64,000 nt of DNA from Gammaproteobacteria bacterium (lineage in GTDB: Bacteria; Pseudomonadota; Gammaproteobacteria; G965277405). A program made the position numbers and the translations under genes. The stretch lies in the NCBI GenBank assembly GCA_965277405.1, contig OZ255726.1:1120001-1184000 (forward strand). The letters run 5' to 3'. Below the pieces are notes generated by a model, which worked only from the letters and a program-made list of their open reading frames with translations, ran no database searches and was not told where the DNA came from. Within the stretch, counting starts at the first letter, position 1; each line of letters begins with the position of its first letter. Below, piece by piece: positions 45,136 through 61,742 of this stretch.

Positions 45136-45948
45136 CTATAGTTCTGCTCCCAGCCGAAACGACATCTTCCTGGCTATCTCCTGCACGCTGCGCACAATCA
45201 GATCCTCGCCATTTTTATCTACAGATTGCTGCGACAAGCTAACCGCAACTCCTGCAATTGGGCGGTTTTCGGAATTCAGTACGGACGCGCCGAAGCAAAT
45301 CATTCCATCTTTGACTTGCTGGTTGTCGATCGAATAGCCGCGTCCACGGATTTGTTTCAATTCACGCATAAGTTGTGAAAAATCCTGCACACTATGGTCA
45401 GTCAGCGGTTCAGGAAAACTGTTACCGATTAGTTTTCTGACCTCGGTGTCGCTCATGTAACTTAACAACGATTTTCCAGTTGCCGTGAACGCGGCAGGAA
45501 GGAGCATTCCGCTGTGAAAATCGAAGCCCACTGGCAATTTTGAGTTGCGGACAGCGAGATAGACCACCTCTGACCCTTCTAGAACCGAAAGCGTGATAGT
45601 GGCACCAGGTAGTTGGCTGCTTTCATCCAAGATCCTTACAAACTCAATTGCCAAATCAGATTCTTGGACGAACCGATTCGCCCAGCGCATGACATGTGGT
45701 CCCAAAAAATAGGTTTGACCCGTCCTGCAAACCAGTAAATTTAGCTCAATCAGTGTCTTGCATAGTCCATGAACGCTGCTTTTTGCTAAGCCAACCCTAG
45801 CAGCAATCTCAGTGATGGTCAGGTTTTGTTTTGACGTAGCAACAACGTCGAGAATACTCACCCCACGCGCTAGTGCCGGGACCAGTTTATGACTGCCCTC
45901 AAGTTTATTGAAAGTCGTTTGTGTTTTTTTAGTGCTTTTTATGTCCAA
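45136..45948 (-). CDS. blcR: IclR-family regulator, BlcR/AttJ-like
   Basis: VPALARGVSILD, LAKSSVHGL, GPHVMRWAN, LPAAFTATGK, RGYSIDNQQVKDGM; divergent from the lactonase operon. Confidence 0.8.
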   Translation of the reverse strand: MDIKSTKKTQTTFNKLEGSHKLVPALARGVSILDVVATSKQNLTITEIAARVGLAKSSVHGLCKTLIELNLLVCRTGQTYFLGPHVMRWANRFVQESDLAIEFVRILDESSQLPGATITLSVLEGSEVVYLAVRNSKLPVGFDFHSGMLLPAAFTATGKSLLSYMSDTEVRKLIGNSFPEPLTDHSVQDFSQLMRELKQIRGRGYSIDNQQVKDGMICFGASVLNSENRPIAGVAVSLSQQSVDKNGEDLIVRSVQEIARKMSFRLGAEL

Positions 45949-46031
45949 AGCCCATTCCTATTTGCGCGTTTGATAAAACTTGCTGAACTGTATCAGTAGA
46001 GTGGCAGCAGTCCTTGCAATAGAGAATTTGT

Positions 46032-46045
46032 TTCAGTATACTGAA
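46032..46045. promoter_or_regulatory. Palindromic candidate IclR operator
   Basis: Perfect palindrome TTCAGTATACTGAA in the divergent intergenic region. Confidence 0.6.
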
Positions 46046-46176
46046 TTGCGTTCAAAGGAGAAAGAAGTTGCAAATCTTACCAGTATTTAACAGTCCTAGC
46101 GTAGTTTACCACTGCTACATAGAATTTGACACATCCGCAATTGTAACCGAAAAAACCAATATGGAAAGAGCGGCTG

Positions 46177-46566
46177 ATGGTAGATGAAGCGCGGGATTGG
46201 GTGATTAAGTTCAGTGAGGCATCCGACAATAATGCTACGATCGGTGCGATGTCGCGTTATTTCACCTGCACTTACATGTTAGACATGGAATATCGCCGCA
46301 TGATTGTTGAGATGATTGACGGCAAAGTATACCGTATCAATATTAACCCTAGCGGGATGGACGCCTATGATTTTGCGTTGAGAGCCAGTGCGGCGACATG
46401 GCGAGAATTTGCCCGCCCCATTCCGAAACCGATGTTCCATGGCATATGGTCAGCTAGCTTTCGTAAAGATTTAAAAATCGAAGGCAACACTTTGGTGCTG
46501 ATGCAAAATTTGCGCAATTTCACGATTCAGTTCGAATTGCTGCGCGTGGTTGGCGTGCCTGTATGA
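46177..46566 (+). CDS. Small hypothetical protein, possible SCP2-like lipid-binding fold
   Basis: DFALRASAATWREF..P.P.FHGIW..LKIEGN pattern; precedes an alpha/beta hydrolase. Confidence 0.55.
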   Translation: MVDEARDWVIKFSEASDNNATIGAMSRYFTCTYMLDMEYRRMIVEMIDGKVYRININPSGMDAYDFALRASAATWREFARPIPKPMFHGIWSASFRKDLKIEGNTLVLMQNLRNFTIQFELLRVVGVPV

Positions 46567-46608
46567 GCATCAATATATTGCAAAAATCCCAGATCACAAC
46601 GGGCTGAA

Positions 46609-47463
46609 ATGGTAACTCATTCTCCCGTAACAGGACGATTTGTGACAATTGACGTCGATGGCTGTGAATACAAGGTGTTCTACTTACAAAACGGCAGTGG
46701 AGTGCCGTTGCTATGCCAGCATACGGCTGGCTGTCACAACCTCCAGTGGCGCGACCTGTTGGAAGACCATGAGATTACGTCCAGATATAACGTAATCGCA
46801 TACGACCTGCCACGCCACGGCAAATCTGATCCTCCTCACAACAAGGAATGGTGGAAGGAAGAGTACTTGCTGACAGCCGACCACTTTGTCAACTTCATCA
46901 TTAAACTATGCGACGCTCTGGAGCTTGATAATCCGATTTTTATGGGTTCATCGTTTGGAGGTAACGTTGCGTTGCAACTGGCGCTGCGCCATCCTGATCG
47001 TTTTCGCGCTGTCATTCCAGTTGAATCAGCCGAACATGCGCCAGGTTTCTACCTTGATCTGTGGCGTCATCCCCATGCAAATGCGGCACAGGTTTGTGCC
47101 AGTGGTGTTTGGGATCTTATGGCACCACAAAGCCCTGACTTGGATCGCTGGTTGACTTGGCATTATTATACTCAAGGCTCAGAAGCATTCAAAGGCGATC
47201 TGTATTTCTATTCGGTTGAACATGATTTGCGCGACAAGCTTGGACAAATAGACACCAGGCGCTGTCCCGTCATCATGATGACAGGAACCTATGACTATCT
47301 AACACCGCCCGAGGTCACCGAGGAGACAGCACGGAAAATTGCTGGCGGAATTTATATTGAGATGGAAGACATTGGGCATTTTCCTATGAGCGAGAATTAT
47401 CCTCTGTTCCGAGAATACCTGCGCGAGGCGCTGCGAATCATTGAGGATCGAACTGATGGATGA
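46609..47463 (+). CDS. Alpha/beta hydrolase
   Basis: HTAG, YDLPRHGKS, nucleophile motif GSSFGG, GTYDY, GHFPM. Confidence 0.9.
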   Translation: MVTHSPVTGRFVTIDVDGCEYKVFYLQNGSGVPLLCQHTAGCHNLQWRDLLEDHEITSRYNVIAYDLPRHGKSDPPHNKEWWKEEYLLTADHFVNFIIKLCDALELDNPIFMGSSFGGNVALQLALRHPDRFRAVIPVESAEHAPGFYLDLWRHPHANAAQVCASGVWDLMAPQSPDLDRWLTWHYYTQGSEAFKGDLYFYSVEHDLRDKLGQIDTRRCPVIMMTGTYDYLTPPEVTEETARKIAGGIYIEMEDIGHFPMSENYPLFREYLREALRIIEDRTDG

Positions 47464-47499
47464 CGGGCTTGCTAACACTGTGAACAAGAATGTTGACCG

Positions 47500-48426
47500 A
47501 TGAAGATTCTTGAATTTAACGAGCGTGGGCTGCAGGTCGAGCGGGATTCGAAATTGGTTCGTCAAATGGATTCGCTCAGCCATCTGGCGGTGCCACCAAA
47601 TCTGACACGGGCAGATCACGAACGACCTCACGTACAGTCAGACATGCAACTTTACATGTTCCAGACTGGCATCCTACGCACCAAAACTAAGTATATCAAG
47701 TTGAACCAAGGCGAGGAAAATTTCGAAATCCCAGTGCCGTGGTTCCTGATCAAGCATCGCAAGGGTATTGTGGTCATTGATGGTGGCAACGCCATTGAAG
47801 TTGCCATCGACAAGCGTGCGCATTGGGGGGCTGTTTGTGATACCTATGACCCAATTATGAACGTCGACGAAACCTGTGTCGAGCAATGTCGCTTGGTGGG
47901 GGTTGAGCCAGCAGATGTTCGTTTTGTAGTGCAGTCACATCTGCATCTAGACCATTCTGGTGCCGTGGGCCGGTTCCCCAACGCCCAGCATATCGTGCAG
48001 CGATTAGAGTATGATTATGCCTTCAACCCAGACTGGTTTTCCGCGGGAGCTTATATTCGAGCCGATTTTGACCGCCCAGGGTTAGATTGGAAATTTCTGG
48101 GAGGGGTGTACACAGATAATTTCGATCTGTTTGGTGATGGCACAATCCGCATGATCTTCACGCCAGGTCATTCGCCTGGGCATCAATCATTCTTGATTAC
48201 CCTACCGAACACCGGAGCTGTACTACTGACAATTGATGCAGCTTATACGCTGGATCATTGGCACGACAAGGCATTACCTGGGCTGAACTGCTCGGCTGTA
48301 GATACTGCCCACTCAGTCGCCAAGCTTCACAAAATTGCAAAAGACACCGGCGCAATCGTAGTCACTGGGCATGACCCGGATAACTGGGAGACGTTTCGAA
48401 AAGCCCCACGAGGTTTTTATGATTGA
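47500..48426 (+). CDS. attM: AttM/BlcC-family N-acyl-homoserine lactone / gamma-butyrolactone lactonase (alternative start 47644)
   Basis: EIPVPWFLI, IDGGNAIEVA, QSHLHLDHSGAVGRFPNA, TPGHSPGHQS, TIDAAYTLDHW, VTGHDP, closely matching AttM as recalled. Confidence 0.9.
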   Translation: MKILEFNERGLQVERDSKLVRQMDSLSHLAVPPNLTRADHERPHVQSDMQLYMFQTGILRTKTKYIKLNQGEENFEIPVPWFLIKHRKGIVVIDGGNAIEVAIDKRAHWGAVCDTYDPIMNVDETCVEQCRLVGVEPADVRFVVQSHLHLDHSGAVGRFPNAQHIVQRLEYDYAFNPDWFSAGAYIRADFDRPGLDWKFLGGVYTDNFDLFGDGTIRMIFTPGHSPGHQSFLITLPNTGAVLLTIDAAYTLDHWHDKALPGLNCSAVDTAHSVAKLHKIAKDTGAIVVTGHDPDNWETFRKAPRGFYD

Positions 48427-48531
48427 ATGAACCATGGGTGCATGGAGGCACTCGTTTCACAGCTCCGAGCCGAACACGGTATAGGAGTAATAAAGGCCAA
48501 GCTATTTTGGTCGTAACCAACGGAGGTAAAA

Positions 48532-49713
48532 ATGAATATGCTTAAAATAAATCAACTTAAATCTATTGCCATGGCAATAGTGGGGCTGGCAATCAGTGCT
48601 GTCGCTACTGCAGGAGGGCTTGACGACATCGATCAGGAAGTGCGTGCGCGCTTGTATGACCCAGAAATGACTGACCCATCCCAACCAGTCGAGGCTAGCA
48701 TCTATGCTGACTTCGTGGCTAAAAACCCACCGCCTTGGACCATCGGCTACGCCAGTTCCTATGCTGGCAACACTTGGCGTGCTGGTGTCATGGCACAGTT
48801 GCAGAACGAAATCATTCCGCGCTGGCAAGAGCTTGGATTGATTAAAGAGGTTATTATCACGCAATCTAACCTCAAGGATGCTACCCAGATCCAACAGATG
48901 CGCCAACTGGTTGACCGGGGTGTCGATGCGATCATTGTGTGCTGTTCAAACCCAACCGCGCTGAATCAAACGGCAAAATATGCCTATGACCAGGGAGTGC
49001 CGACCTTCTCGCTGACGGGATATCTGACATCACCATACGCGGTAAATTCGTCGGTGAACTACCAGAAGGCTGGATTTGAAATTGGCAAATTGATGGCCGA
49101 ACAACTGAATGGTTCGGGCAACGTTCTTGTGGTTGAGGGTATCCCTGGCACATCTGGTTCTGACAGCCAAGATCGAGGTGTAAAGGCTGGCCTTGCCACG
49201 GCCGAAGGAGTTAAAGTTGTGGGATCTATTGCTGGAATGTGGACCGACCAGGTGGCCCAAGGTGAATTGCAGAAGTGGCTGGCAACACACCCAGGTAAAC
49301 TGGATGGCATCGTTGTCCAGTCTGCGGCTGAAATGGGCGTTTTGCGTGCACTAGCGCAATCTGGGCGCGACAACATCCCTGTTTCCATCGGTGGCGAACT
49401 GGGAGCGCTTTGCTACTGGCGCAACAACCCAGACTATATTTCAGCTGCAATCCAGACCTGGCCTCCGCAGGATGAGATAGAGCTTATCTGGGACATCATG
49501 ATGCGCACCCTCCAGGGACAAGGACCAAAGATACAATCTATCATGGTCGAGCCGGTGACTATTTCCTTTGACGAACTCAAAGGGGTCATGGGCAAGGATT
49601 GCAGCCAGAATACTGCCGACTGGCTACCCGTTGGCAAGGACAGATGGGGCGGGCAAGCCTATCTGGATGGGTTCTTCCTGCGCCCTGCCGATCCTACGGT
49701 TTACAAGCCTTAA
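48532..49713 (+). CDS. ABC transporter substrate-binding protein (sugar-type fold)
   Basis: Signal peptide, PPWTIGYASSYAGNTWR, QIQQMRQLVDRGVDAIIV; GGAGG RBS. Confidence 0.88.
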   Translation: MNMLKINQLKSIAMAIVGLAISAVATAGGLDDIDQEVRARLYDPEMTDPSQPVEASIYADFVAKNPPPWTIGYASSYAGNTWRAGVMAQLQNEIIPRWQELGLIKEVIITQSNLKDATQIQQMRQLVDRGVDAIIVCCSNPTALNQTAKYAYDQGVPTFSLTGYLTSPYAVNSSVNYQKAGFEIGKLMAEQLNGSGNVLVVEGIPGTSGSDSQDRGVKAGLATAEGVKVVGSIAGMWTDQVAQGELQKWLATHPGKLDGIVVQSAAEMGVLRALAQSGRDNIPVSIGGELGALCYWRNNPDYISAAIQTWPPQDEIELIWDIMMRTLQGQGPKIQSIMVEPVTISFDELKGVMGKDCSQNTADWLPVGKDRWGGQAYLDGFFLRPADPTVYKP

Positions 49714-49725
49714 CACAATGAAACT

Positions 49726-49756
49726 TCGGACCGACCTTATAGATAGGGCGGTCCGA
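49726..49756 (+). terminator. Intercistronic stem-loop
   Basis: TCGGACCG...CGGTCCGA inverted repeat after the binding-protein gene. Confidence 0.55.
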
Positions 49757-49774
49757 TTATTTAGGTAAAATGCT

Positions 49775-51511
49775 ATGGCATTAGATCAAGCCAATTTAAT
49801 ACAAACGCCCGCCGCCCAAGTCACGATATCGGTTGTCAATGTCTCCAAGTTTTTTGGACCGACTCGTGCACTAGAAGGCTGCAGCTTTTCTGCGCGCGCC
49901 GGTGAAATTCACGCCATCGTGGGCGGTAACGGCAGCGGTAAAAGCACATTGGCAAAAATTGTTTCTGGTATATTGCCGATTGACCGTGGACAGGTCTCAA
50001 TTCTTGGAGAAACTCCGTCAACGCCAGCTGAAAGCCGCGCCATTGGGATTTCTACCGTCTATCAGGAAGTGCTAGTTGCTGACGAAAGCACGGTCGCCGA
50101 TAATTTGTTCATGGGCACAGACGCGCTTTTTTCTGCAAGCGTCTCTACACGCGACAAGGTTGATCGTGCCGCCACTCTTATGCACGAACTTGCTGGTGAA
50201 AAAGTTGACCCGTATGCATTGGTCGGTACTTTACCATTGGGAATCAAACAGTGGATCACCATCGGGCGCGGGTTGCTGCAAACACCACGTATTCTGATAC
50301 TGGACGAATCCTCGGCTGCCCTTGATTTTGACGGCACTGAACGGCTGTTCGCCAAGATACGAGAATCGCGCGATAATGGCACGACGGTCCTAATAGTGAC
50401 GCACCGCATTGCCGAATTGATCCGTATTTCTGACCGCGCTACGGTTTTGCGCGATGGTCGCGATGTCGGCGTACTTAAAAAAGCCGATATTACTGAAAAA
50501 AACCTGCTTGCCCTGATGACTGGTGAAGATCAAAGTGAAGCGCACCGCCATGTGACTGCCCCGCAACCGCTTGACCCGACACCGGTGATGCAGGTGCATG
50601 CATTGAAAGTTTGGAGCGATGCAGAAACTATGGATTTTGAGCTGTTGCAAGGAGAGATTGTTGGCATCGCTGGTCTTGACGGACACGGGCAGGACGAATT
50701 TGTGCGAATTTTGGCAGGGGTGATGCCTGCGGCAATAGGGAAGCCCATGGTTGCGGACCGCACAGGAATCTTGCAGCCGATTCAAACGCTAAGAGACGCG
50801 GTTAACGCTAAAATTGCCTACGTTTCAGGTGATCGTAAGCGCGAAGGAATCTTTGACTCCCTCAGCATTTTTGAAAATATGCTGATGCCACTTTACCGCG
50901 AGAAACGACGCGCGGGCAAATTAGGCATCATTGACTGGACAGCGCTGCGTGCAATTTTCAACCGCGAGGTTGAAACCCTGATGATCAAATTCGACTTAGA
51001 GAGCGACAAAATCACCTCACTATCTGGCGGCAATCAGCAAAAATTATTAATCGGTCGTGGCTTTGCCATGCGCCCGAATATTATCGTGCTGAATGATCCA
51101 GCTCGGGGCATTGATGTCGGGGCTAAATCAGAGCTTTACCAACATCTTCTGGGCTTTGCGCAAAGCGGTAAGTCGGTTATTTACATGTCGAGCGAATTGG
51201 AGGAGTTTATAGGCTTTGCCACGCGTGTTATCGTTTTTCGCAACGGCAGTCAGTTTGACGCTTTTGCAGGTGAATCTGTTGACGGCAAGAGCATTTTGGC
51301 AGCAATGTTCGGTCAGACCAATCGTTCTGGATTGAAAACCAGGAATGGTACTCCCGATAATTCGCCAAAAGCAACGCGCGCAACTAAGGACAAGCTAACT
51401 GTTGCCAGCGTGAGTCCGCAACTGGGAAATCCTCAAGTTGCGTCAAGACCAAGTATAAAAATTCTTGAATTCGGTCAGGCCGGAGAAAAACGCCAGATGT
51501 ATACAAAATGA
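49775..51511 (+). CDS. ABC transporter ATP-binding protein (two NBDs) with C-terminal extension
   Basis: GGNGSGKS, LILDESSAALD, LSGGNQQK, LNDPARGIDVGAK. Confidence 0.92.
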   Translation: MALDQANLIQTPAAQVTISVVNVSKFFGPTRALEGCSFSARAGEIHAIVGGNGSGKSTLAKIVSGILPIDRGQVSILGETPSTPAESRAIGISTVYQEVLVADESTVADNLFMGTDALFSASVSTRDKVDRAATLMHELAGEKVDPYALVGTLPLGIKQWITIGRGLLQTPRILILDESSAALDFDGTERLFAKIRESRDNGTTVLIVTHRIAELIRISDRATVLRDGRDVGVLKKADITEKNLLALMTGEDQSEAHRHVTAPQPLDPTPVMQVHALKVWSDAETMDFELLQGEIVGIAGLDGHGQDEFVRILAGVMPAAIGKPMVADRTGILQPIQTLRDAVNAKIAYVSGDRKREGIFDSLSIFENMLMPLYREKRRAGKLGIIDWTALRAIFNREVETLMIKFDLESDKITSLSGGNQQKLLIGRGFAMRPNIIVLNDPARGIDVGAKSELYQHLLGFAQSGKSVIYMSSELEEFIGFATRVIVFRNGSQFDAFAGESVDGKSILAAMFGQTNRSGLKTRNGTPDNSPKATRATKDKLTVASVSPQLGNPQVASRPSIKILEFGQAGEKRQMYTK

Positions 51512-51524
51512 GCTAAACATCCAT

Positions 51525-52922
51525 ATGACTCAGTATCACGAAGACTACAAACGACAAGACGGAGGTGTTTCAAGCTCCTACCTGCTGGTGCCTATATCTG
51601 TGTTGTTCATCCTGCTAATTGCCGCTGTGATCAGGTCGCCATCATTGATTTCCAGTTCCGGCATCGGGGCGGCAATTATTGTGTCGGCGCCGCTTATTCT
51701 GGCGACCTATGCGCTGATGGTAAATGCCACCTCTGGGCGTGGCACAATTGATCTATCGGTCGGCCCGCTAATTGGTTTTATTAATGTAACCATCATCCAG
51801 TTGACGGCATCTGGGATTATCGGATCACCGATTTCAATATTCCTGTTCGCCTTGATGGTTGGTATTGCTTATCAACTAGTGATGGGGCTGATCATCATCT
51901 TTGTGCGGGTGCAGCCTATAATCGTGTCGCTAAGCGGGTTTCTGGCGCTTGCTGGCATCAATCTAGTTATCCTGCCCCGTCCTGGCGGGCTAGCACCACA
52001 GTGGATGCTGTCTTGGGGTGCTGGCACAACAATATTGTCGCCAGTTCTGTGGATTTTGGTTGTGGCGACACTAGGGTGGTTGCTCTTCACCAGAACCGCA
52101 TTTTACACCCATCTGCGGTTGATGGGGTCTGACGAACGCGCGGCCTATACCAGTGGTGTTCCCATCACCATTGTCCGCCTTGGAGCGCATGTAATTGCAG
52201 GAATATTCAGTGGGTTGGCGGCAATCACCTTTACCTCGCTCATTAGTTCTGGGGATCCAAGCCAAGGCACGACCTATACCCTTATTGCGGTGACAGCACT
52301 GGTTCTGGGTGGCACCTCACTAGCTGGAGGTCGGGGCACGGTCATAGGGTCGTTGTGCGGGGCGGTGAACCTGTATCTGATTACATATGTTTTAGCAACC
52401 TTCAACTTTGGCGCGGTACAAAGTTTTGTGACGGATCTGGCCTATGGCTTGATACTGGTTGCGTCGCTGTTGCTCACACTAGCCCTGCCGTTCATCCAAC
52501 GCCATATTCGTAATTTCTCTCCGTTACTCTACTTTGTGGTTCTTGCGGTTGTGGCGTTTGGAGTCATTCTGCATGCCACCTTCGACTACGATGCGTTGCG
52601 TCTAGCAGTGTCGGCACAGGAGGGATCAGGCGCCATTGTGGCCGCGTCGTTCGAACCTGCGAATTTTGCAGGTCCATTCGAAACCGCGCTGCTGAGCAAC
52701 AGTGACACCAAGCTGCGTAGCTATGCCAGACCAATGATCCTAGCTGGATTGCTGCTTATTCTGATTCCAGTTTTGTTGCGCGTCTTAGTTTCGCAATCCA
52801 ATCGCCGTGATATCGGGCCGCTGGTCGCTCTTGTCATCGCCGCGCTGGTTCTGCTGAGCGGCTATTTCCTCAGCCGCAGTCCAGAACTGCCATTGCTAAC
52901 TAAAACGCAGGTTTCACAATGA
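51525..52922 (+). CDS. ABC transporter permease with extra C-terminal TM segments
   Basis: IDLSVGP, GSDERAAYTSG, LVLGGTSLAGGRG. Confidence 0.87.
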   Translation: MTQYHEDYKRQDGGVSSSYLLVPISVLFILLIAAVIRSPSLISSSGIGAAIIVSAPLILATYALMVNATSGRGTIDLSVGPLIGFINVTIIQLTASGIIGSPISIFLFALMVGIAYQLVMGLIIIFVRVQPIIVSLSGFLALAGINLVILPRPGGLAPQWMLSWGAGTTILSPVLWILVVATLGWLLFTRTAFYTHLRLMGSDERAAYTSGVPITIVRLGAHVIAGIFSGLAAITFTSLISSGDPSQGTTYTLIAVTALVLGGTSLAGGRGTVIGSLCGAVNLYLITYVLATFNFGAVQSFVTDLAYGLILVASLLLTLALPFIQRHIRNFSPLLYFVVLAVVAFGVILHATFDYDALRLAVSAQEGSGAIVAASFEPANFAGPFETALLSNSDTKLRSYARPMILAGLLLILIPVLLRVLVSQSNRRDIGPLVALVIAALVLLSGYFLSRSPELPLLTKTQVSQ

Positions 52923-54301
52923 CGAATTCTATGGCGCGTACCAGAGAAAACGGCACCTTGCTGGCGAGACTAATCGGTCTTGTTCTAGCGATTTCCTTGG
53001 CTGGGACTGGCGTGATTATCGGCTTTGTGCAGGACCAACCAGCGCAACAGGTCATCCTGTATGCCGTGGCAACATTGGCCCTGTCTGCATGGGCGTGGCG
53101 GTATTTTCTATTGCAGTTCCACAGTTTAGAACACAATGGTGGTTCGGTTGACGAACTAGGAGCGCTGCGCCTGACATGGAAAAAATACCGCTATGGTGCG
53201 CTCGGGGTTACGATTCTGTTGCTGAGCTTTATTACTCTGTCGCTGACAATCAACGGGTTCTTCAGTCTCTGGAGCGTCCTCTCTGCGCTGATTCTGCTGG
53301 TTATTCTGTTGGTGACACTAACCGTCGGGAAATTCGTTTCAGAAAACAAAAGTGCGTTTATTGGGCTTATGGTTCTGGTCGGGATGTTTTCAATAGGCTC
53401 TATGAATATCGAAGGGTTTTCTGCTGCGAACAACATCAAGTCGATGCTGTTGTTCGCGGCCTTCCTTGGGCTGGCCAGTGTCGGGCAAACACTCGTCGCT
53501 CTGCTAGGCGGGCTTGATTTGTCGATTCCGTTTGTGATCGGCTCGGCCAATGTTGGGCTGCTGTACATGATCAGCATCGGTGTTCCACCGTGGCTGGCAA
53601 CAATCCTAACGTTACTACTGGGGGCGATTGTTGGGGCGATCAACGGAATCATGAGCTTTCGCCTCCAGGGACAGGCGCTGATTTTGACACTTGGTATGGG
53701 GTTTGCGATTTCGGGAGGTACTCAGATACTGACATCAATCGGGACGGCATACAGCGGCAATGTGTTTGCAACTGTGCCAGGATGGCTTAGCAACCTGTCC
53801 GCCATGAATGGGAACACCTTTGGAATGTCATTCCCGCCAGTCATCGCCATATGGGTTTTGGTGGCGATAGTCCTAATAGTGGGCATGCGGCATACGGTTG
53901 CCGGTCGTTATTTGTATGCGCTGGGGGTCAACCGTGTTTCGGCAAGCCGCGTTTCGATATCAGAGCGGGTTTACTGGGTCGTGATGTATACCCTCAGCGG
54001 GTTCTTTTCAGCGATGACTGGTGCCTTGTTGCTGGGCTGGAGCGGCGGCGGATTTATCGGTGTCGGTGACAATTACCTGTTTATGACGCTAGCAGCAGTG
54101 GTTGTCGGGGGTACTTCGTTGCTGGGGGGGATAGGCGGCTATGGATTCACGGTGATTGGGGTGCTCGTACTACAGGTTCTAACGTCATTCCTTGTTGGTA
54201 TCGGGCTGAATTTTGAATGGCAGCAATTCATCTTTGGTCTGCTCATTCTACCGATGGTGGCGCTGTATGCGCGCTCACCTCACATACGCACACAGATTTA
54301 G
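52919..54301 (+). CDS. ABC transporter permease with extra N-terminal TM segments
   Basis: GQTLVALLGGLDLSIP, GAING, AAVVVGGTSLLGG. Confidence 0.87.
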   Translation: MTNSMARTRENGTLLARLIGLVLAISLAGTGVIIGFVQDQPAQQVILYAVATLALSAWAWRYFLLQFHSLEHNGGSVDELGALRLTWKKYRYGALGVTILLLSFITLSLTINGFFSLWSVLSALILLVILLVTLTVGKFVSENKSAFIGLMVLVGMFSIGSMNIEGFSAANNIKSMLLFAAFLGLASVGQTLVALLGGLDLSIPFVIGSANVGLLYMISIGVPPWLATILTLLLGAIVGAINGIMSFRLQGQALILTLGMGFAISGGTQILTSIGTAYSGNVFATVPGWLSNLSAMNGNTFGMSFPPVIAIWVLVAIVLIVGMRHTVAGRYLYALGVNRVSASRVSISERVYWVVMYTLSGFFSAMTGALLLGWSGGGFIGVGDNYLFMTLAAVVVGGTSLLGGIGGYGFTVIGVLVLQVLTSFLVGIGLNFEWQQFIFGLLILPMVALYARSPHIRTQI

Positions 54302-54350
54302 AAAAAACGCTTATGAAACATAGATATACTAGCAATATTGGGAGGACACT

Positions 54351-55109
54351 GTGAACCCTCCGATCCTTGCAACCATTGATCTAACTGGCGCCAGTTATTC
54401 TGCGACTCTTTTGGGCTTGATCGCCACAACAGTATTGCTGCTGATGGGAACTGGCTGGGTCGCACGGGGCTGGAAATTGCCAGTAACGCTGTGTGCCGTG
54501 GCAGCTCTTGTCGGGGCGCTGGCATTGTTTGAAGCCCGTCATGTATGGCTAATCACAGCCGAAGTGCCAATAGTTTATCACTATGTTGGCTGGTTTATTT
54601 CAATGCCGCTGCAAGTGATGGCCTTGTATTTTCTGGCGCGCCAAGTTGTGGCGTTATCGGTTGCGCTGTTTTGGCGTTTAATCGTTACTTCGATGCTGAT
54701 GATCCTAGTGCGATATCTAGGTGAGGCAGGTTTCATGCATGCAACGCTGGCATTTTTGATTGGTATTGTTTTCTGGCTGTATATTTTGGGCGAGCTTTTC
54801 TTCGGGCGGGCGAACGAAGCTATTTTTAAAAGCTCGAACCCCTGTATTCAGCGTGGATATTTCTGGTTACGGCTGATCGTGACCGTTGGCTGGGCGGTAT
54901 ACCCGCTTGGCAATTTCATCACTAGTTTCGGTGGCTATGTCGATCATGGCGGGTTGAGCGTTACCTATAATATTGCTGACTTCCTGAATCGGATGGCATT
55001 TGGGCTGGCTGTATTGGCAACCGCAATCTTTGCCGCCGCGGAGGATGTGGCATGCCTGGTGCCAAGTGCGGGTAACAAGAAAACTACACAACTGGAGAGA
55101 CGGCAATGA
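54351..55109 (+). CDS. Proteorhodopsin-like 7TM protein lacking the retinal-binding lysine (flotillin-associated rhodopsin type)
   Basis: Colinear with proteorhodopsin: WKLPVTL, VYHYVGWFISMPLQ (cf. VFRYIDWLLTVPLL), YLGEAG, GWAVYPLG, YNIADFLNRMAFG (cf. YNLADFVNKILFG). Confidence 0.88.
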   Translation: MNPPILATIDLTGASYSATLLGLIATTVLLLMGTGWVARGWKLPVTLCAVAALVGALALFEARHVWLITAEVPIVYHYVGWFISMPLQVMALYFLARQVVALSVALFWRLIVTSMLMILVRYLGEAGFMHATLAFLIGIVFWLYILGELFFGRANEAIFKSSNPCIQRGYFWLRLIVTVGWAVYPLGNFITSFGGYVDHGGLSVTYNIADFLNRMAFGLAVLATAIFAAAEDVACLVPSAGNKKTTQLERRQ

Positions 55110-56809
55110 ACGGAGCAGACATCATCGCAATCATTATTCTGGCGGCAATAGTTATTGCCGTACTCGCCTATCTTCTTCACTGGCTTTACCGCCATTCCAG
55201 CAAGGACATCTCTTTTGTGCGAACTGGATTTCGTGGTGAAAAAATCATCATGGGTGGTGGAGCATTGGTGCTGCCAATCGTACATGACCTGACTGAAGTC
55301 AACATGAACACGCTGCGTCTGGAAGTGCTCCGGGCGCGTGAGAAATCATTGATCACCAAGGATCGGATGCGGATTGAGCTGGAAGTCGAGTTTTACGTAC
55401 GTGTCATCCCGACTAAAGACGCAGTAGCAACTGCAGCTCGCACATTGGGCAAGCGCACGATGAACCCAGAAAGCCTGCGTGATCTCATTCAAGGACGCTT
55501 TGTCGATGCAATGGGAGCGGTTGCTGCATCCATGGCAATGGAAGAAATTCACGAAAACCGATCGACATTCATCAAGGCAATTCGAACCGAGGTTGCCGAC
55601 AGTCTGAGCATGAACGGACTGGAGCTAGAAACAGTTTCGCTAACTTCGCTTGAGCAAACCGATATCAAGCTATTTAACCCATCAAATGCTTTCGACGCAG
55701 AGGGTCTGACCCGCCTGACCGAGGAAATCGAAAAGCGCAAGAAAAAACGTAATGACATCGAGCAGGACACCATGATCGCGATTCGCGAGAAAAATTTGGA
55801 GGCGGAAAAACTCACTTTGAATATCCAGCGCGACAGCGAATACGCCCGCCTTGCCGAAGACAGCGAAGTAGCGATGCGCCGGGCTGAGCAAAAGACTAAA
55901 GTCGAACAAATGAACGCCGCTAAAGAGCGTGAGATTGAGATAGCAAGACTTATCGAGCGTGAAGAAGTCGAGTGTCGCCGTATCCAGATGGAACAAAAAC
56001 TTGAGGCCATGGAAATCAAACGTCAGGAGGCCCGCGAACTTGATGAGCAACAACGCGAGATCGCAGTATCTATTAAATCCAAGGAACGCTCTGAGGCGCA
56101 GGTGCAAGCGGAAACTACCCGTGCAACAATGATGGAAGCACGGGAAAAAACCCACACTGTGCGTGACATGGAAATAGCAAACCGACTCAAAATGGTAGAG
56201 TTGGTTGCTGCCGAGAAGGAGGCCGAGCGTCAGGCAATCGGTGTCAAAACGCAGGCTGAAGCGGAAAAGTCAGCCGCATTAGATCGAGCGGAGGCAGACC
56301 GGATTGCGGTTGCGGCATTGCAACAACGGCTTGCCGTTGAGGCCGAAGGCAAGCGCGCGCTTAATGTGGCAGAAAACCTACGTTCGGATGCCAGCCGTAA
56401 AAGCGCGCTGCACCAGCGTCTGGTGGAAAATCTGCCCGATATAATCCGCGAAAGCGTCAAGCCGATGGAAAAAATCAACGAAATCAAGATTGTCCATGTC
56501 GAAGGACTGCCTGGTCTATCCCGCGGCGGTAGCAACGATGGCTCAAGCAACGCAGATGGTAGTGCCCCACGCGACGGCAATCTTGCCGATCAGGTGGTGA
56601 ATTCGGCCTTGCGATATCGTGCGCAGGCGCCGTTTGTCGACACGCTGCTAGGAGATATCGGCATGTCTGGTGAAAACATCCACCGGATGGAAGGTCTACA
56701 GGACTTATCCAAGATTATCTATACCGAACCCAGCGGAGCAAAACCTGCTGAACCTGCGCAGCCTAAAGTAAAAAAAACAAATAATCTTGCAAATAATCTT
56801 GCAGAATAG
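55106..56809 (+). CDS. Flotillin (SPFH/band 7 + coiled coil)
   Basis: N-terminal TM, FVRTGFRG..GGALVLPIVH, LITKDRMR, FNPSNAFDAEGLT, AE-rich coiled coil, LPDIIRESVKPMEKI. Confidence 0.92.
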   Translation: MNGADIIAIIILAAIVIAVLAYLLHWLYRHSSKDISFVRTGFRGEKIIMGGGALVLPIVHDLTEVNMNTLRLEVLRAREKSLITKDRMRIELEVEFYVRVIPTKDAVATAARTLGKRTMNPESLRDLIQGRFVDAMGAVAASMAMEEIHENRSTFIKAIRTEVADSLSMNGLELETVSLTSLEQTDIKLFNPSNAFDAEGLTRLTEEIEKRKKKRNDIEQDTMIAIREKNLEAEKLTLNIQRDSEYARLAEDSEVAMRRAEQKTKVEQMNAAKEREIEIARLIEREEVECRRIQMEQKLEAMEIKRQEARELDEQQREIAVSIKSKERSEAQVQAETTRATMMEAREKTHTVRDMEIANRLKMVELVAAEKEAERQAIGVKTQAEAEKSAALDRAEADRIAVAALQQRLAVEAEGKRALNVAENLRSDASRKSALHQRLVENLPDIIRESVKPMEKINEIKIVHVEGLPGLSRGGSNDGSSNADGSAPRDGNLADQVVNSALRYRAQAPFVDTLLGDIGMSGENIHRMEGLQDLSKIIYTEPSGAKPAEPAQPKVKKTNNLANNLAE

Positions 56810-56853
56810 GCTGGCTCTGCCTGTTCTGAAAGACTGACAAGGAGGCAATCAAG

Positions 56854-57279
56854 TTGGAAACATCACAAAAAATTGAACGTGGTATCATTGTATTCTGTAA
56901 CTGGACGGTGTTCGGACTGGTCGGGCTCGGTTTGCTGATGGAAGGCGGTGCGCGCGACAGTTTTTTGCTTGGATCGGTCGGGGTCGGCAGCATCATCGTC
57001 GGATTTTCTGGTCATATCTTAGTTAATTCAATTTTCCAACAATCCTTTACCTTGGGTGAGACGGTGCTAGGGCTGGGATTGTTCGCAATATTTGTACTGA
57101 CATTTATTGCATTATGGATTGGTGGAGGGTTATCGAGGGTAGATTTTAATATAGGGCTGAGTCTGTTGGCAGTCCTTGTGGCCGAGTTCTTGGTGTATGT
57201 GATCAGCCGCTATGGCTTGCGCGGCGCGTTCAAGCGCTTTGACGTTATCCCGACAACTGGGTTAGGAAACGGGAAATGA
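56854..57279 (+). CDS. Hypothetical 4-TM membrane protein
   Basis: Four hydrophobic segments, AGGAGG RBS, ATGA overlap with the next gene. Confidence 0.7.
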   Translation: METSQKIERGIIVFCNWTVFGLVGLGLLMEGGARDSFLLGSVGVGSIIVGFSGHILVNSIFQQSFTLGETVLGLGLFAIFVLTFIALWIGGGLSRVDFNIGLSLLAVLVAEFLVYVISRYGLRGAFKRFDVIPTTGLGNGK

Positions 57280-59231
57280 GCCAGTCTGACCCTAAGGTAT
57301 GGTTGGCGCTGTATTTTCTGGTCTACTGCGCCTTGTCCCTATTTTGGGCACGCCGGTCTGCTTTACTCAATGATGGTCCTGCGGGATTCTTTGTGGCGAA
57401 TAATGCTCTGCCAGTCTGGGTCGTGGCATTGGTCATGACAGGGGCCAGTCTGTCGGGCTGGGTAGTGCTAGGTTTTCCAGAAATAATTGCAACGCAAGGA
57501 TTTGGTTTTGCCATGCTTGGGTTGGCAGGAATTATCTTGCCGCTTGCTGGGGTGTTGTTTTTCAAACGTCAGTGGCTGCTGGGGCGGCATTTTAGCATAT
57601 CCAGTCAGGGCGTCCTGTTTACTCGGCATTTCGGTGGCTGGGGTCTTTCGGTGATTTCAGCGGGTATTGCCGTAGTGTTTGCCATAGGGTTCAGCGGCAT
57701 GCAGCTGCGAGCATTAGGGGGTATTCTGGCGCAGGCTTCTGGGGACATGTTAAATGCTGCGACCATCATCTGGGCCATTTCATTATTGCTATTCTCCTAT
57801 GTGGTGATCGGTGGAATGCGCGCAATTGGCTATCTTGGTGCCATGCAAACGGTTTTAATTGGGCTGTTTATAGTCGGGCTAACTGTTTTGCTGCTGGTAA
57901 CCTCGGATGGTTTTTCTGCTTTGAACCAGCATCTTGCGGCAATATCGCAGTCTGGCAAGGCGCAGCAAACCAATCTATTTCAGGTAGCAGGCGTCATTCA
58001 GTTTACCGCTGGTATTGGCCTTGAAAACCCAGTGGGTGGCCAATGGAGCGCGGTGATGATTTTGAGCACTGCAATGACGCTGATGGGGTTTCAGGCCAGT
58101 CCAATGGCCACCCAGTTAATTTTGAGCGCGCGCGGTGCGAACGGGCTTGCGGCCGGACAGACATGGGTGATGGCAGCTGTTTTTGGTGGATTTGTAGTCT
58201 TTGGAGTTATTCTAATCGGTGCACAAGGTCTGGTTGCAGGTGACAGCACCGTGTTGGGGAGCATGCTGGCGCAGTTGGGGTTTGATTCTCCTTGGTTTAT
58301 GGCCTCACTATCATTAGGGGCCGTTGCGGCGGTACAAATTGTAGCGGGTCTCAGCCTGTTGAGTGCAGCCACGGCATTGGTATGCGACATCTACATTCCT
58401 TTTTTTCATAAAGGACTGGGAGCGACCCGCGCAGTTTTGCTGGCCCGCATTCTTGTTGGGTTATTACTGTTGACTTCGATTCTTCTTGCCTTGTTGGACC
58501 CGGTCAGTCTCTCGTCTATCGGCGCGATTGCCTTGCCGATCGCATTTCAACTCTGGCCTGCCTTGCTTGGTCTGTGCTGGTTGCGCTGGATCAGCCGTCA
58601 AGCTGCCACGGCAGGAGTCGTAATCGGAATTTTAGCGGTGTTGGTGACAGATAAGCTGGGTGGTGATGTGCTTGGTTTTCTTGGACTTAATCTGCCATGG
58701 GGACGATGGCCTTGGACGATTCACTCGGCTGCGTGGGGGATGTTTTTCAATCTTCTGGCTGTTGTCACGATTTCGGCAATCACCTTGGGACGTGGACATT
58801 CTGCAACTGCGCCGCAAATGTGGGACTTTCTACGCCAACACGCTCCAGTTAGTGTTGAAGCCCGCGCGCTGAAAGCTGTGGGCTGGTCGGTAATTCTGGC
58901 ATGGTTTTTTCTGGCACTTGGTCCTGGTATAGTGCTGGCAAATCAGGCGTTTGGTACGGCTGGCGCAGGAATTGCAGGCTGGCGTGTCACAATGCCGTCG
59001 CTTTGGGCGTGGTCCCTTGTGTTCTGGGTGCTGGGCGTGTTGCTGATCTGGTTTCTGTCTTATCGACTGGAATTGGCGACTGCCCCCACCAAGGACATTC
59101 CACTGGCGGTAGATCAGCCCCGCCTACCAGCTACCAACACTCGTATGCAGGAGGGCGAGCTGGTTCGCCTCGTTCGCACTGTTGCAATCATTGCCAGTGG
59201 CATTGCACTCGTCGTCTGGATTTTCGGCTGA
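57276..59231 (+). CDS. Sodium:solute symporter family protein
   Basis: FFVANNALP, ASLSGWVVLGFP, YVVIGGMRA, many TM segments, PWGRWPWTIHSAAWG. Confidence 0.8.
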   Translation: MSQSDPKVWLALYFLVYCALSLFWARRSALLNDGPAGFFVANNALPVWVVALVMTGASLSGWVVLGFPEIIATQGFGFAMLGLAGIILPLAGVLFFKRQWLLGRHFSISSQGVLFTRHFGGWGLSVISAGIAVVFAIGFSGMQLRALGGILAQASGDMLNAATIIWAISLLLFSYVVIGGMRAIGYLGAMQTVLIGLFIVGLTVLLLVTSDGFSALNQHLAAISQSGKAQQTNLFQVAGVIQFTAGIGLENPVGGQWSAVMILSTAMTLMGFQASPMATQLILSARGANGLAAGQTWVMAAVFGGFVVFGVILIGAQGLVAGDSTVLGSMLAQLGFDSPWFMASLSLGAVAAVQIVAGLSLLSAATALVCDIYIPFFHKGLGATRAVLLARILVGLLLLTSILLALLDPVSLSSIGAIALPIAFQLWPALLGLCWLRWISRQAATAGVVIGILAVLVTDKLGGDVLGFLGLNLPWGRWPWTIHSAAWGMFFNLLAVVTISAITLGRGHSATAPQMWDFLRQHAPVSVEARALKAVGWSVILAWFFLALGPGIVLANQAFGTAGAGIAGWRVTMPSLWAWSLVFWVLGVLLIWFLSYRLELATAPTKDIPLAVDQPRLPATNTRMQEGELVRLVRTVAIIASGIALVVWIFG

Positions 59232-59252
59232 TTGTAAAATGAGAGAAACCAT

Positions 59253-60410
59253 ATGAATCCTTTTGTCTTCAACACATCACCCAGCATCCGCTTTGGTGCT
59301 GGTCAGCTGTCGCAGCTTGGTGAAATCGTCAAAGCCGAGATCGGCGATCACATTCTGTTAGTGACGGATCATGGAATAATCGCGACTGGCATCGTAGATC
59401 GTGCCCTCGCAGCATTGAATTCTGCTGGCATTGAAGTCACGGTGTTCAGCGATGTGCAGGCCGACCCGCCTGAAACAATTGTATTGCAGGCAACCCAGGC
59501 TGCAATCAACTCTGAGGTCCAAGGCATTGTCGGCCTTGGCGGGGGTTCTTCCCTTGATGTTGCCAAGTTGGCTGCCCTGCTCGCACTGGGTCGGGAGGAG
59601 TTGAAGGATGCCTATGGCATTGGCAACGCTATTGGACCGCGCCTGCCACTAATCCTTGTTCCAACCACCGCCGGTACTGGGTCCGAAGTGACGCCTATCT
59701 CTATTGTAACTACAGGTGCTTGCGAAAAGATGGGGGTGGTTTCACCCGTGATACTGCCTGATATCGCGCTGCTAGACCCAGACCTGACGCTGGGTTTGCC
59801 TGCGCATATTACTGCGGCCACCGGCATTGATGCCATGGTGCATGCGATCGAGTCCTATGCCTCGGCCAGTTCAAATAACAACCCTATATCCCGCAATCTA
59901 GCGACACAAGCATTACGCCTGATGGGGGGAGCACTCGAGACTACCGTACATAACGGTAGTAATGTCGAGGCCCGCGCCAATATGCTGCTAGGTTCGATGC
60001 TAGCGGGTCAAGCATTTGCCAATTCGCCTGTTGCCGCGGTTCACGCGCTTGCATATCCTATCGGCGGGTATTTTCATGTTCCGCATGGTTTATCCAATGC
60101 GCTGGTACTGCCTCATGTGCTGCGCTTCAACACTAAAGTCGCGCCACAGCCTTACGCTGAAATGGCACCTTATGCCTTTCCTGATCTGGCACGACTGCAA
60201 GGACAAGAACTCGCCGAAGCATTCTGCGATGCTATGGAGGATCTTTCAAAACGCTGCGGATTGCAACAAACACTTCGCGAAATGGATATACCTCGTGATT
60301 TCCTGCCAAAACTGGCCAGTGCCGCAATGAACCAGACCAGATTGCTGGTCAATAACCCACGGAAAGTCCACGAGGTTGATGCGCTCTCAATTTATGAAGC
60401 CGCCTGGTAA
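59253..60410 (+). CDS. Iron-containing alcohol dehydrogenase, AttL/BlcB (gamma-hydroxybutyrate dehydrogenase)-like
   Basis: GLGGGSSLDVAK, PTTAGTGSEVT, TGIDAMVHAIE, AFANSPVAAVHALAYP, HVPHGLSNA. Confidence 0.88.
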   Translation: MNPFVFNTSPSIRFGAGQLSQLGEIVKAEIGDHILLVTDHGIIATGIVDRALAALNSAGIEVTVFSDVQADPPETIVLQATQAAINSEVQGIVGLGGGSSLDVAKLAALLALGREELKDAYGIGNAIGPRLPLILVPTTAGTGSEVTPISIVTTGACEKMGVVSPVILPDIALLDPDLTLGLPAHITAATGIDAMVHAIESYASASSNNNPISRNLATQALRLMGGALETTVHNGSNVEARANMLLGSMLAGQAFANSPVAAVHALAYPIGGYFHVPHGLSNALVLPHVLRFNTKVAPQPYAEMAPYAFPDLARLQGQELAEAFCDAMEDLSKRCGLQQTLREMDIPRDFLPKLASAAMNQTRLLVNNPRKVHEVDALSIYEAAW

Positions 60411-60699: not shown

Positions 60700-61742
60700 A
60701 AATTTAGGCTACTATTCTGAGCTTCCTCTTTTCAATTTTTCTTTTTCTTGGTTTAATATTTCCCTGCTATGCGCTTAACAGGTCGTTCGTTGATCTATTG
60801 ATGAACTTCGTTTTGCTGTGTTTTGCGCAACGTGGGGCGTTGCGCTCAATTCACGGCATTGCTTGGCATTGCTTGACAAGGCCTTTGGTGTCGTATTTCT
60901 TGTCCGCTGCCAATGTCACTTGGCGATTTCCTGGAATATTGGCTAGCATTTCTATCGCAGCATCGGTTGCAGCGGTGCCGCTGAACTGTTTGCTATGTGC
61001 GTCTACCACCAAACCATTGCGGTCCTCAATCATAATATTGCCCACGTAACACGGTATTGCCGCTTGGCCTTGGCTTTTCTTGCCAAAGCGCGCTTCTGGA
61101 TCTGTGGTAGATTGGTGGGTAGCGCGGTGGCGTTTCTTGCCTTTAACATCAATCCGTTTGTTGCTGCTGCCATAATTGTGGTCATCGTCGTCTTTCATGT
61201 GGAAGCTTTTCACTGATGCCAGCGCGTATAGTAATGTTCCATCCACACTGAAATGTTCGTCTGCAAGAAGACCTGCTGTTTCAGCCTGTTGTTTGATGCG
61301 AATGAAAAACTTAACAGCAGTATTTCCCGCAAGAAGACGATCGCGGTTTTTGGTGACGGTTGAGTGATTCCAAATACCATCATCCATACAAAAACCGACA
61401 AACCAACGGAACATCAGGTTATAGCCAATTTGCTCCATCAACGCACGTTCGCTGCGGATCGTGAAAAGCGCCATCAACAACTGGGCACGCAATAATTTCT
61501 CTGGTGGTATACCTGCTCGTCAGCTTGGGGCATACAAAGTATTGAAGTGGCCGTTCATCTCCTACAACGCCACATCGACCATTTTCTTGATATGGAGAAT
61601 TGGGTGATTTTGGGGTACTGCGCTTGCAGCGATAGGGTGCTGAACATTCTAGCTTGGGTGAAATCAGTTCCTCGTATCGAATTATCTCAGGAAAATAAAC
61701 ATTATACCTTATTAAGGAAGGGGTGTGTTTTTCAACAGCCTT
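60700..61742 (-). mobile_element. IS5-family element with frameshifted/nonsense transposase pseudogene
   Basis: Pieces RGTDFTQARMFS, NHPILHIKKMVD, GIPPEKLLRAQLLMALFTIRSER..YNLMFRWFVG, FSVDGTL, STTDPEAR, ADKKYD; end GTTTTTCAACAGCC(T) near 61727-61741. Left boundary approximate. Confidence 0.8.

Follow-up and report, generated by a model that had tools for sequence, protein, structure and literature searches.

A flotillin-associated rhodopsin without the Schiff-base lysine in an apparently acquired 13-gene block of a deep-branching gammaproteobacterium

The subject of this analysis is a rhodopsin-family gene, together with the gene block around it, in a 64,000-nucleotide stretch of a gammaproteobacterial genome (assembly GCA_965277405.1, contig OZ255726.1, positions 1,120,001 to 1,184,000 of the forward strand; hereafter the window). 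The gene (54351-55109, plus strand) starts with GTG, preceded a few bases upstream by a ribosome-binding site (GGGAGG), and codes for a protein of 252 amino acids that matched the Pfam family Bac_rhodopsin (PF01036) with an E-value of 9.3e-22 and 78 bits versus a cut-off of 24.6. Its stop codon overlaps the ATG start codon of a flotillin gene (caATGAac, 55106-55109). Based on the Pfam match, the alignment to PDB structures, the homologue columns and a tree, the predicted protein is a member of the lysine-less branch of an already published family, the FArhodopsins, which were named by Haro-Moreno et al. (2023, mSystems; PMC10308929) and, according to the main text of that paper, always lie beside a flotillin gene. 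We refer to it as FAR (flotillin-associated rhodopsin). Most freshwater FArhodopsins are described there as lacking the lysine and carrying Gln, Thr, Leu or Arg instead, in agreement with a preliminary description of the locus, which had placed the protein among flotillin-associated rhodopsins and stated that members without lysine exist.

The best solved relative of FAR is PsFAR of Pseudothioglobus (PDB 9R21; E 6.8e-50, residues 2-225), whereas proteorhodopsin structures in PDB gave weaker matches (E 3e-40 to 2e-33). The helix G motif of FAR reads NIADFLNRMAFG, in which Arg214, encoded by the CGG codon at 54990-54992 of the plus strand, aligns with K213 of PsFAR and with the Schiff-base lysine of proteorhodopsin 4jq6. 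In an alignment with 18 proteorhodopsin representatives, the helix C residues R, D, T and E of the latter fall on H77, G80, S84 and A91 of FAR. Alignment of the FAR sequence with PsFAR places H77 on R76, G80 on D79, S84 on T83, M85 on H84 and A91 on M90 in helix C, and further R121 on E120 and D210 on D209. The fold residues W81, W181, Y184 and P185 are common to FAR and the 18 representatives. FAR is thus predicted to be a seven-helix protein of the proteorhodopsin fold that is unable to form a retinal Schiff base. The arginine codon, the helix C replacements, the intact reading frame and the ATGA overlap had all been read from the DNA in the preliminary description, and each was recovered here.

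The exchange at position 214 is shared by most close relatives. Among the best 120 of 782 homologues found at E ≤ 1e-10 (60-100% identity), the lysine site is occupied by Arg in 110, Leu in 5, Val in 2, and Gln, Ser and Cys in one each. The other replaced positions are equally well kept in this set, with H77 in 118, G80 in 119, S84 in 119, A91 in 118 and R121 in all 120 sequences; the M85 column contains Met in 106, Ile in 7, Leu in 5, and Phe and Gln in one each. Altogether, 25 positions are at least 95% conserved in the 120 homologues and differ from the 18 proteorhodopsin representatives. The CGG codon was also unchanged in contigs of three public sequencing runs, which all come from one study and do not count as independent support, because this study may be the source of the assembly. 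The recurrence of arginine in 110 of the 120 homologues, together with the run contigs, argues that Arg214 is not a read error, an explanation that the preliminary description had named as one that would undo its reading. In the run designated X3, one contig with a depth of 10.6 shows T>A at 54989 and T>A at 55006 relative to the window, corresponding to N213K, beside Arg214, and L219Q in helix G; its remaining covered bases in a 3.1-kb stretch match the window exactly. The two changes may reflect strain variation or a mistake in assembly.

We calculated a careful maximum-likelihood (ML) tree with IQ-TREE from 66 rows, comprising the window, 36 flotillin-linked loci, four Pelagibacteraceae proteorhodopsin loci and 25 full-length representatives of 50% clusters. 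Forty FAR rows were located on one side of a branch supported by an ultrafast bootstrap (UFboot) of 98 and an SH-aLRT of 96, three of which (P0121, P0124 and P0126) had no genomic context and were grouped from a quick tree. The phylogeny proposed as a check in the preliminary description therefore groups the window with the flotillin-linked FARs, apart from the pumping proteorhodopsins. The window is part of a 28-row set (support 100/98) inside the lysine-less branch and branches near the base of its subclade; the nearest relatives at the protein level (P0002 and P0003) are 80-81% identical. In the quick tree of the same rows, three lysine-bearing FARs were sister to a 37-row lysine-less clade (SH-aLRT 100). 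Sister FAR subclades with the same gene neighbours contain Gln, Leu, Glu or Arg at position 214 and Arg, Pro or Gln at position 77. The flotillin-linked rhodopsins of three loci, L029 (10001-10699), L030 (10001-10699) and the unpublished L028, have a proteorhodopsin-like helix C (R, D, T), Val at the position of PsFAR H84, Gln or Arg at the lysine site and Arg at position 121. From these residues they look like intermediate forms; two of the three genomes contain a weak second rhodopsin-family match.

FAR evolves under purifying selection of about the same strength as the neighbouring flotillin. Pairwise dN/dS values were calculated by the NG86 method for the window and 22 loci of the same subclade (253 pairs), of which those with 0.05 < dS < 2 were usable; synonymous sites were saturated in pairs involving the window itself. 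The median was 0.159 for FAR (152 of 253 pairs usable, range 0.047-0.365) and 0.125 for the flotillin (162 of 253 pairs usable), so that the dN/dS check suggested in the preliminary description speaks against neutral decay. In addition, a 33-sequence FAR alignment contains 32 invariant columns.

We then considered the genome as a whole. The host genome consists of one contig of 2,174,577 bases, is 98% complete and contains a single PF01036 match, which is FAR itself. Therefore, the term "paralogue" used in the preliminary description is wrong for this genome, since there is no other rhodopsin gene. No match to phytoene synthase (PF00494) was obtained in the whole genome (the positive control was found in 8 of 14 named genomes), nor to Blh (PF15461), which was detected in all three proteorhodopsin-bearing Pelagibacter genomes used as control. 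The earlier statement that the window is devoid of retinal synthesis genes can thus be extended, for these two families, to the entire genome. The other 34 genomes with lysine-less FARs, whose completeness is not given, present a similar picture: FAR is the only rhodopsin-family match in 32 of them, the exceptions (G067 and G068) having one weak second match each, and Blh is absent from 33, the exception (G064) being a partial match at a contig end. In G076, one of two genomes with a lysine-bearing FAR, a second rhodopsin adjoins Blh. Marine-type FArhodopsins keep the lysine and share their genome with a bona fide proteorhodopsin; neither trait was found in the window's genome, which has one PF01036 match and Arg at position 214. 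Because FAR has no Schiff-base lysine and its host has neither a retinal pathway nor a second rhodopsin, the protein must, to judge from these sequences, work without light or retinal. This supports the light-independent reading given in the preliminary description.

To place the gene in its genomic context, loci were collected by a pattern scan of one-genome-per-species contigs, which yielded 80 loci, 36 of the FAR type and 44 with Pelagibacteraceae proteorhodopsins, and synteny was determined by tblastn with the 13 proteins of the window's cluster. A same-strand flotillin gene follows FAR at its 3′ side in 36 of 36 FAR loci versus none of the 44 proteorhodopsin loci. FAR, flotillin and a gene for a sodium:solute symporter family (SSF) protein occur in this order in 35 of the 36, the exception being cut by a contig end; eight genes from the solute-binding protein to the SSF protein are ordered in 27, and all 13 genes have the order and orientation of the window in 18. 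One of these loci, L028 (genome G067), is unpublished; without it the four counts are 35/35, 34/35, 27/35 and 18/35, and no conclusion rests on it alone, as the published locus L029 (G068) has the same features. Across the 18 loci with full synteny, the median identity to the window amounted to 73% for the SCP2-like protein, 71% for the iron-containing alcohol dehydrogenase (Fe-ADH), 71% for the binding protein, 70% for the lactonase, 69% for FAR, 68% for the flotillin, and 44% each for a small protein with four transmembrane (TM) segments and for the SSF protein. The linkage of FAR to flotillin, the 4-TM protein and the symporter, which the preliminary description had seen in the window, is conserved. 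The functional unit exceeds the one that it had described, as these four genes belong to a block of 13 genes covering about 15.3 kb (45136-60410).

Two details of the FAR-flotillin junction were not confirmed as general features. The 4-nt ATGA overlap is peculiar to the window, since the two genes are separated by 33-144 nt in the other 36 loci, and an apparent FAR-flotillin gene fusion in L048 was rejected because the open reading frames show two genes. The window's FAR also has a longer C-terminal tail (252 amino acids in total versus 232-240 in the other 36 loci).

The association of FAR with its flotillin was also evident in a sample of 151 genomes drawn around one carrier. A close FAR (≥ 61% identity) was present in four of them, and the only four flotillin genes with at least 68% identity lie directly downstream of it in these genomes; three more divergent FAR-flotillin pairs were found in this sample. 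By their titles, the carriers of the cluster include Hoeflea, Oricola, Rhizobium, Metarhizobium, Pararhizobium, Roseovarius and Martelella, and further Cohaesibacter, Lichenifustis, Tistlia, Roseiarcus, Oxalobacteraceae, Methylibium and Rhizobacter, among others. Strain records with the cluster are Rhizobium aquaticum DSM 29780, Metarhizobium album NS-104, Roseovarius litoreus DSM 28249, Tistlia consotensis USBA 355, Lichenifustis flavocetrariae BP6-180914, Hoeflea sp. CAU 1731, Rhizobium sp. LjRoot30 and Pararhizobium antarcticum NAQVI 59. With genome sizes of 2.6-7.6 Mb, the carriers are not streamlined plankton.

The flotillin encoded downstream of FAR (55106-56809, plus strand; 567 amino acids) is composed of an N-terminal TM helix, an SPFH domain, a coiled coil and a Flot domain (Pfam Flot, 112 bits versus 27, 2.2e-32; Band_7, 53 bits versus 23.6, 4.4e-14). 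It is not an equivalog of Bacillus FloT (68 bits versus 700). Its single N-terminal hydrophobic segment covers residues 6-24, and residues 1-30 (55106-55195) are the most conserved part of the protein, with a majority fraction of 0.90 versus 0.74-0.82 for the other domains. The N-terminal TM helix is near-identical across all 36 loci, including those with lysine-bearing FAR types.

The 4-TM protein of 141 amino acids (56854-57279, plus strand) was recognized by its four hydrophobic segments in a hydropathy analysis, and the stop codon of its gene overlaps the SSF start. No Pfam or NCBIfam family matched it, and the ESM Atlas returned unnamed clusters only. Homologues were detected by tblastn in 33 of the 36 related loci, including all 27 that keep the core from binding protein to SSF; L033 is cut at a contig end, and the complete loci L053 and L061 gave no tblastn match. 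It is possibly a small subunit of the symporter. The latter (57276-59231, plus strand; 651 amino acids) is a divergent SSF protein with a borderline Pfam match (25.7 bits versus a cut-off of 22.8); its score against the VC_2705-type family TIGR03648 (30 bits) was far below the cut-off.

Upstream of FAR, on the plus strand, the block codes for a second transport system. It comprises a periplasmic solute-binding protein of the CUT2 type with a signal peptide (48532-49713; Pfam Peripla_BP_4, about E 2.5e-20 to CUT2 binding proteins in PDB), a double-cassette ATPase of the ATP-binding cassette (ABC) type (49775-51511; Pfam ABC_tran in two stretches, NCBIfam sugar-type ATPase matches below their cut-offs) and two ABC permeases (51465-52922 and 52919-54301; Pfam BPD_transp_2). 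In the permeases, BPD_transp_2 covers residues 78-332 of 485 and 173-444 of 460, respectively, and each has about three extra hydrophobic segments, which lie towards the C-terminus in the first permease and towards the N-terminus in the other. The tblastn coverage of the permeases was 0.9-1.0 in most related loci, where the predicted extensions appear to be conserved.

Among the remaining genes of the block, that at 46177-46566 (plus strand) encodes a 129-residue SCP2-like, i.e., lipid-carrier-like, protein, whose match to Pfam SCP2 was weak (14.5 bits versus a cut-off of 21.3, E 0.046) and whose nearest ESM Atlas cluster, with a score of 0.98, is named "putative SCP2 domain-containing protein". 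The adjacent gene (46609-47463, plus strand) codes for an alpha/beta-fold hydrolase (Pfam Abhydrolase_1) and is the most conserved of the block, with identities of 80-84% and a median of 83% in the 18 loci with full synteny; the nearest solved relatives of the hydrolase are distant esterases only. The next gene (47500-48426, plus strand) codes for a protein of the metallo-beta-lactamase (MBL) fold, a predicted cytoplasmic AttM-family N-acyl-homoserine-lactone/gamma-butyrolactone lactonase, which reached the NCBIfam equivalog NF045700 (429.6 bits versus a cut-off of 390) and matched the "N-acylhomoserine lactonase" of PDB 9kho (E 3e-109, residues 50-304). A reading of its N-terminus revealed no signal peptide; the start was probably over-called by a 47-residue extension, with Met49 (47644) as the likely true start. 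The lactonase is present with at least 60% identity in 25 of the 36 FAR loci, and three further loci are cut off upstream. The last gene of the block (59253-60410, plus strand) encodes the Fe-ADH (Pfam Fe-ADH and ADH_Fe_C). At the opposite end, an IclR-family transcription regulator (45136-45948, minus strand; Pfam IclR_C and HTH_IclR), with sub-threshold matches to BhcR and PcaR of NCBIfam, is encoded divergently from the operon, as is the case in the 18 loci with all 13 genes. The number of promoter-like sites in the block (27 versus 19.5 ± 3.9 in shuffled sequences) was not clearly above expectation, and the same holds for terminator-like sites (18 versus 20.2 ± 5.0).

Base composition and protein relationships indicate that the block was horizontally acquired by a deep-branching gammaproteobacterium. 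The region 45136-60410 has a GC content of 0.508 and a GC3 of about 0.49-0.60, whereas 15.5-kb windows of the host genome have a mean GC of 0.448 (standard deviation 0.023), only 0.65% of them reaching the value of the island; flanking housekeeping genes have a GC3 of 0.33-0.42. Homologous clusters elsewhere have a GC content of 0.565-0.694. FAR and most proteins of the cluster are 57-84% identical to alphaproteobacterial counterparts in the fully syntenic loci, with lower values for the IclR regulator, the 4-TM protein and the SSF protein (38-56%), and no homologue above 32% identity was found in the 40 nearest compared genomes of the same class, the class being the only shared rank. The host, whose genome measures 2.17 Mb, belongs to an isolated lineage of Gammaproteobacteria: no other protein found exceeds 57% identity to its PheS, and the named matches are all from the same class. 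One related locus, L017, is titled as a plasmid (Martelella). A search for repeats flanking the island returned only short ones at chance level.

At the right edge of the island lies an insertion sequence (IS)-like element (60782-61719, minus strand) that measures about 0.94 kb and encodes a transposase of the Pfam family DUF772. Three more copies with 95-97% identity and one internally deleted copy are present elsewhere in the genome; the element is part of the host genome and does not form part of the cluster. The island is immediately preceded on its left by genes for an ECF-type sigma factor and for an anti-sigma factor of the NrsF-like type (43032-44502), which we regard as host genes because of their low GC content (0.38-0.39). 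A second GC-rich block at 4393-14497 (GC3 0.54-0.62 versus 0.3-0.4 nearby) codes for two group-1 glycosyltransferases, RmlD-like and Polysacc_synt_2 enzymes, a UDP-GlcNAc 2-epimerase and a second CUT2-type ABC importer, and is probably another acquired island. Finally, a 435-residue protein encoded at 1589-2896 matched the Gig2-like family of Pfam (PF07350, 416 bits) and adjoins a fragment with the N-terminal domain of a type I restriction HsdR protein.

By its predicted content, the block resembles a unit for uptake and catabolism of lactones or esters. The blcABC/attKLM genes of Agrobacterium serve lactone catabolism and are controlled by an IclR-type repressor. The window's block shares with this system a lactonase of the AttM/BlcC family at equivalog level, an Fe-ADH and a divergent IclR-family regulator. 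In contrast to blc/att, it contains no succinate-semialdehyde dehydrogenase, and its Fe-ADH stays below the cut-off for 4-hydroxybutyrate dehydrogenase; beyond blc/att, it adds two transport systems, FAR, flotillin, the SCP2-like protein and the alpha/beta-hydrolase. The FAR cluster published by Haro-Moreno et al. (2023) is described as containing a sterol-carrier-like protein, inner-membrane translocators, a sodium symporter, alpha/beta-hydrolases and Fe-ADHs (PMC10308929), and the window has a counterpart of each, namely the SCP2-like protein, the translocators, the Na+ symporter, the alpha/beta-hydrolase and the Fe-ADH. The strings "lactonase", "lactone" and "Rhizobi" do not occur in the main text of that paper, whose Tables S2-S4 may list lactonases, and a literature search returned no paper containing both "FArhodopsin" and "lactonase"; the supplement of PMC10308929 may also list Arg-type sequences.

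The closest known counterparts of FAR are the freshwater lysine-less FArhodopsins, with which it shares the proteorhodopsin-family clade, the flotillin neighbour and the content of the cluster (PMC10308929). These were obtained from short metagenome contigs, so that the authors describe the presence of a second rhodopsin in the freshwater lysine-less hosts as undecidable, whereas the genome of the window is complete and has no second rhodopsin. The host also differs from the freshwater carriers in that it does not belong to a known FAR lineage of streamlined freshwater plankton. A lysine-less xanthorhodopsin-like protein, Rh-noK, is likewise a natural rhodopsin without the Schiff-base lysine, but according to the same source it belongs to a different clade, has no flotillin neighbour, forms a tandem with a functional rhodopsin and pumps again once the lysine is restored (PMC10308929). 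PsFAR was described by Kovalev et al. (2025; bioRxiv 10.1101/2025.04.29.651185) as a pentamer free of retinal, with H84 and E120 filling the pocket. FAR has a bulky charged residue at the same beta-ionone site (R121 for E120), but whereas PsFAR retains K213, R76, D79 and H84, FAR has R214, H77, G80 and M85; S54, which holds the free lysine in PsFAR, corresponds to G55. PsFAR coexists with a proteorhodopsin, FAR does not.

On this basis, we propose, with somewhat better than even confidence, that FAR is a retinal-free structural partner of flotillin in a membrane microdomain for uptake. FAR would form a pentamer like PsFAR, and this pentamer would, as the gene order suggests, serve the flotillin of the adjacent gene as its fixed partner or client in the membrane. 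The scaffold role put forward in the preliminary description is likewise suggested by gene order. The two proteins might then delimit a membrane patch that holds the ABC and SSF uptake systems of the operon. An imported lactone or ester-type substrate would be opened by the lactonase or the hydrolase, and the product might subsequently be oxidized by the Fe-ADH. The finding that the N-terminal TM helix is the most conserved part of the flotillin fits a specific intramembrane contact with FAR. SPFH proteins are known to form cages that enclose clients, such as HflK/C with FtsH. The window may offer an analogous case, in that an SPFH/flotillin protein is encoded together with a fixed integral-membrane partner. 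For flotillins themselves, membrane-attached cages have been described (PMC11260169).

Several observations weigh against this proposal or parts of it. The preprint on PsFAR reports no evident adaptation for flotillin binding (bioRxiv 10.1101/2025.04.29.651185). It also states that an aromatic residue at the position of H84 is conserved in all FARs, whereas Met85, which is not aromatic, occupies this position in the window. Since the aromatic residue is absent, blockage of the retinal pocket in the lysine-less branch is assumed from R121, M85 and F141, of which R121, the bulky residue at the E120 position, is invariant in the 120 homologues. Flotillin paralogues (≤ 55% identity) without FAR occur in 30 of the 151 sampled genomes, so flotillin in general does not need FAR. 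The lactonase is absent or replaced by a distant MBL protein in eight of the 36 FAR loci, and as it is missing or replaced in at least this number, the function of FAR cannot depend on it. With respect to the substrate, the Fe-ADH (NCBIfam ErcA, SarD, lactaldehyde reductase and 4-hydroxybutyrate dehydrogenase all below cut-off; 248.9 bits versus 500 for NF058672), the IclR regulator, the SSF protein and the binding protein reach no equivalog cut-off, and an aldehyde dehydrogenase domain, as would be expected of a succinate-semialdehyde dehydrogenase, is absent from all 13 block proteins.

An alternative that we regard as unlikely is that FAR acts on lipids rather than on proteins, as a retinal-independent phospholipid scramblase or lipid-ordering protein for the flotillin domain, perhaps helped by the SCP2-like protein encoded in the same operon. 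One proteorhodopsin has been reported to confer light-independent benefits via scramblase activity (PMC10730872), flotillins are scaffolds of lipid domains, and FAR retains the rhodopsin fold together with W81, W181, Y184 and P185. The sequence, however, reveals no scramblase path, and opsin scrambling needs no special partner, which leaves the strict pairing with one flotillin subfamily unexplained.

It is also rather doubtful that FAR is, in line with the ligand sensor of the preliminary description, a chemical receptor, gate or conduit whose former retinal pocket, lined by R121, R214, H77 and D210, binds an anionic ligand such as a lactone-derived hydroxy-acid and thereby controls the neighbouring transporters. 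The fixation of Arg, Arg and His at former pocket and counter-ion sites (R121 120/120, R214 110/120, H77 118/120), the 25 branch-specific conserved positions and an operon that probably handles lactones or hydroxy-acids would suit such a function. However, sister FAR subclades with the same cluster carry Leu, Gln, Val or Glu in place of the lysine and Arg, Pro or Gln in place of H77, which means that a fixed Arg/His binding site is not general. Moreover, a transducer or signalling gene is absent from the block, and the equivalent residues of PsFAR are described in the preprint as merely filling the pocket. A combined version, in which the FAR pentamer would be a substrate-sensing gate for the flotillin-caged uptake of lactone-derived hydroxy-acids, with R121, R214 and H77 as carboxylate site, is more speculative still and in our opinion improbable. 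If true, it would represent a bacterial ligand-operated opsin inside a defined SPFH microcompartment, a light device turned chemical.

Haro-Moreno et al. (2023) proposed that FArhodopsins complement a co-resident proteorhodopsin, that is, that FAR would be an accessory subunit that combines with the proteorhodopsin into a heterocomplex and tunes its pumping under dim light. For the window's protein this is very improbable. Marine FAR genomes are reported always to contain a proteorhodopsin (PMC10308929), and the lysine-bearing FAR of G076 is accompanied by a second rhodopsin beside Blh, but the complete genome of the host has no other rhodopsin and no retinal pathway, and the lysine-less set shows the same with few exceptions (no second rhodopsin in 32/34 genomes, no Blh in 33/34). 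That FAR is a decaying relic of a pump without a function of its own can hardly be maintained either, since, despite the loss of every pump residue and the lysine, its frame is intact, the median dN/dS is 0.16, 32 columns of the 33-sequence alignment are invariant and its position is conserved in a cluster that spans several bacterial classes.

FArhodopsins are widespread, and the published working idea for their function has been assistance to a co-resident proteorhodopsin. What is added here is a closed genome and a comparative set in which the lysine-less branch occurs without a rhodopsin partner, together with a defined 13-gene context that includes an AttM-type lactonase. For specialists who know the FArhodopsin papers of 2023 and 2025 these findings will hold little surprise. 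Nevertheless, the data for the lysine-less branch argue against the idea of a helper of proteorhodopsin for that branch, and as neither a partner rhodopsin nor a retinal pathway is present, the function of FAR should be sought in the context of flotillin and transport. The presence of the cluster in cultured strains makes this question open to genetics.

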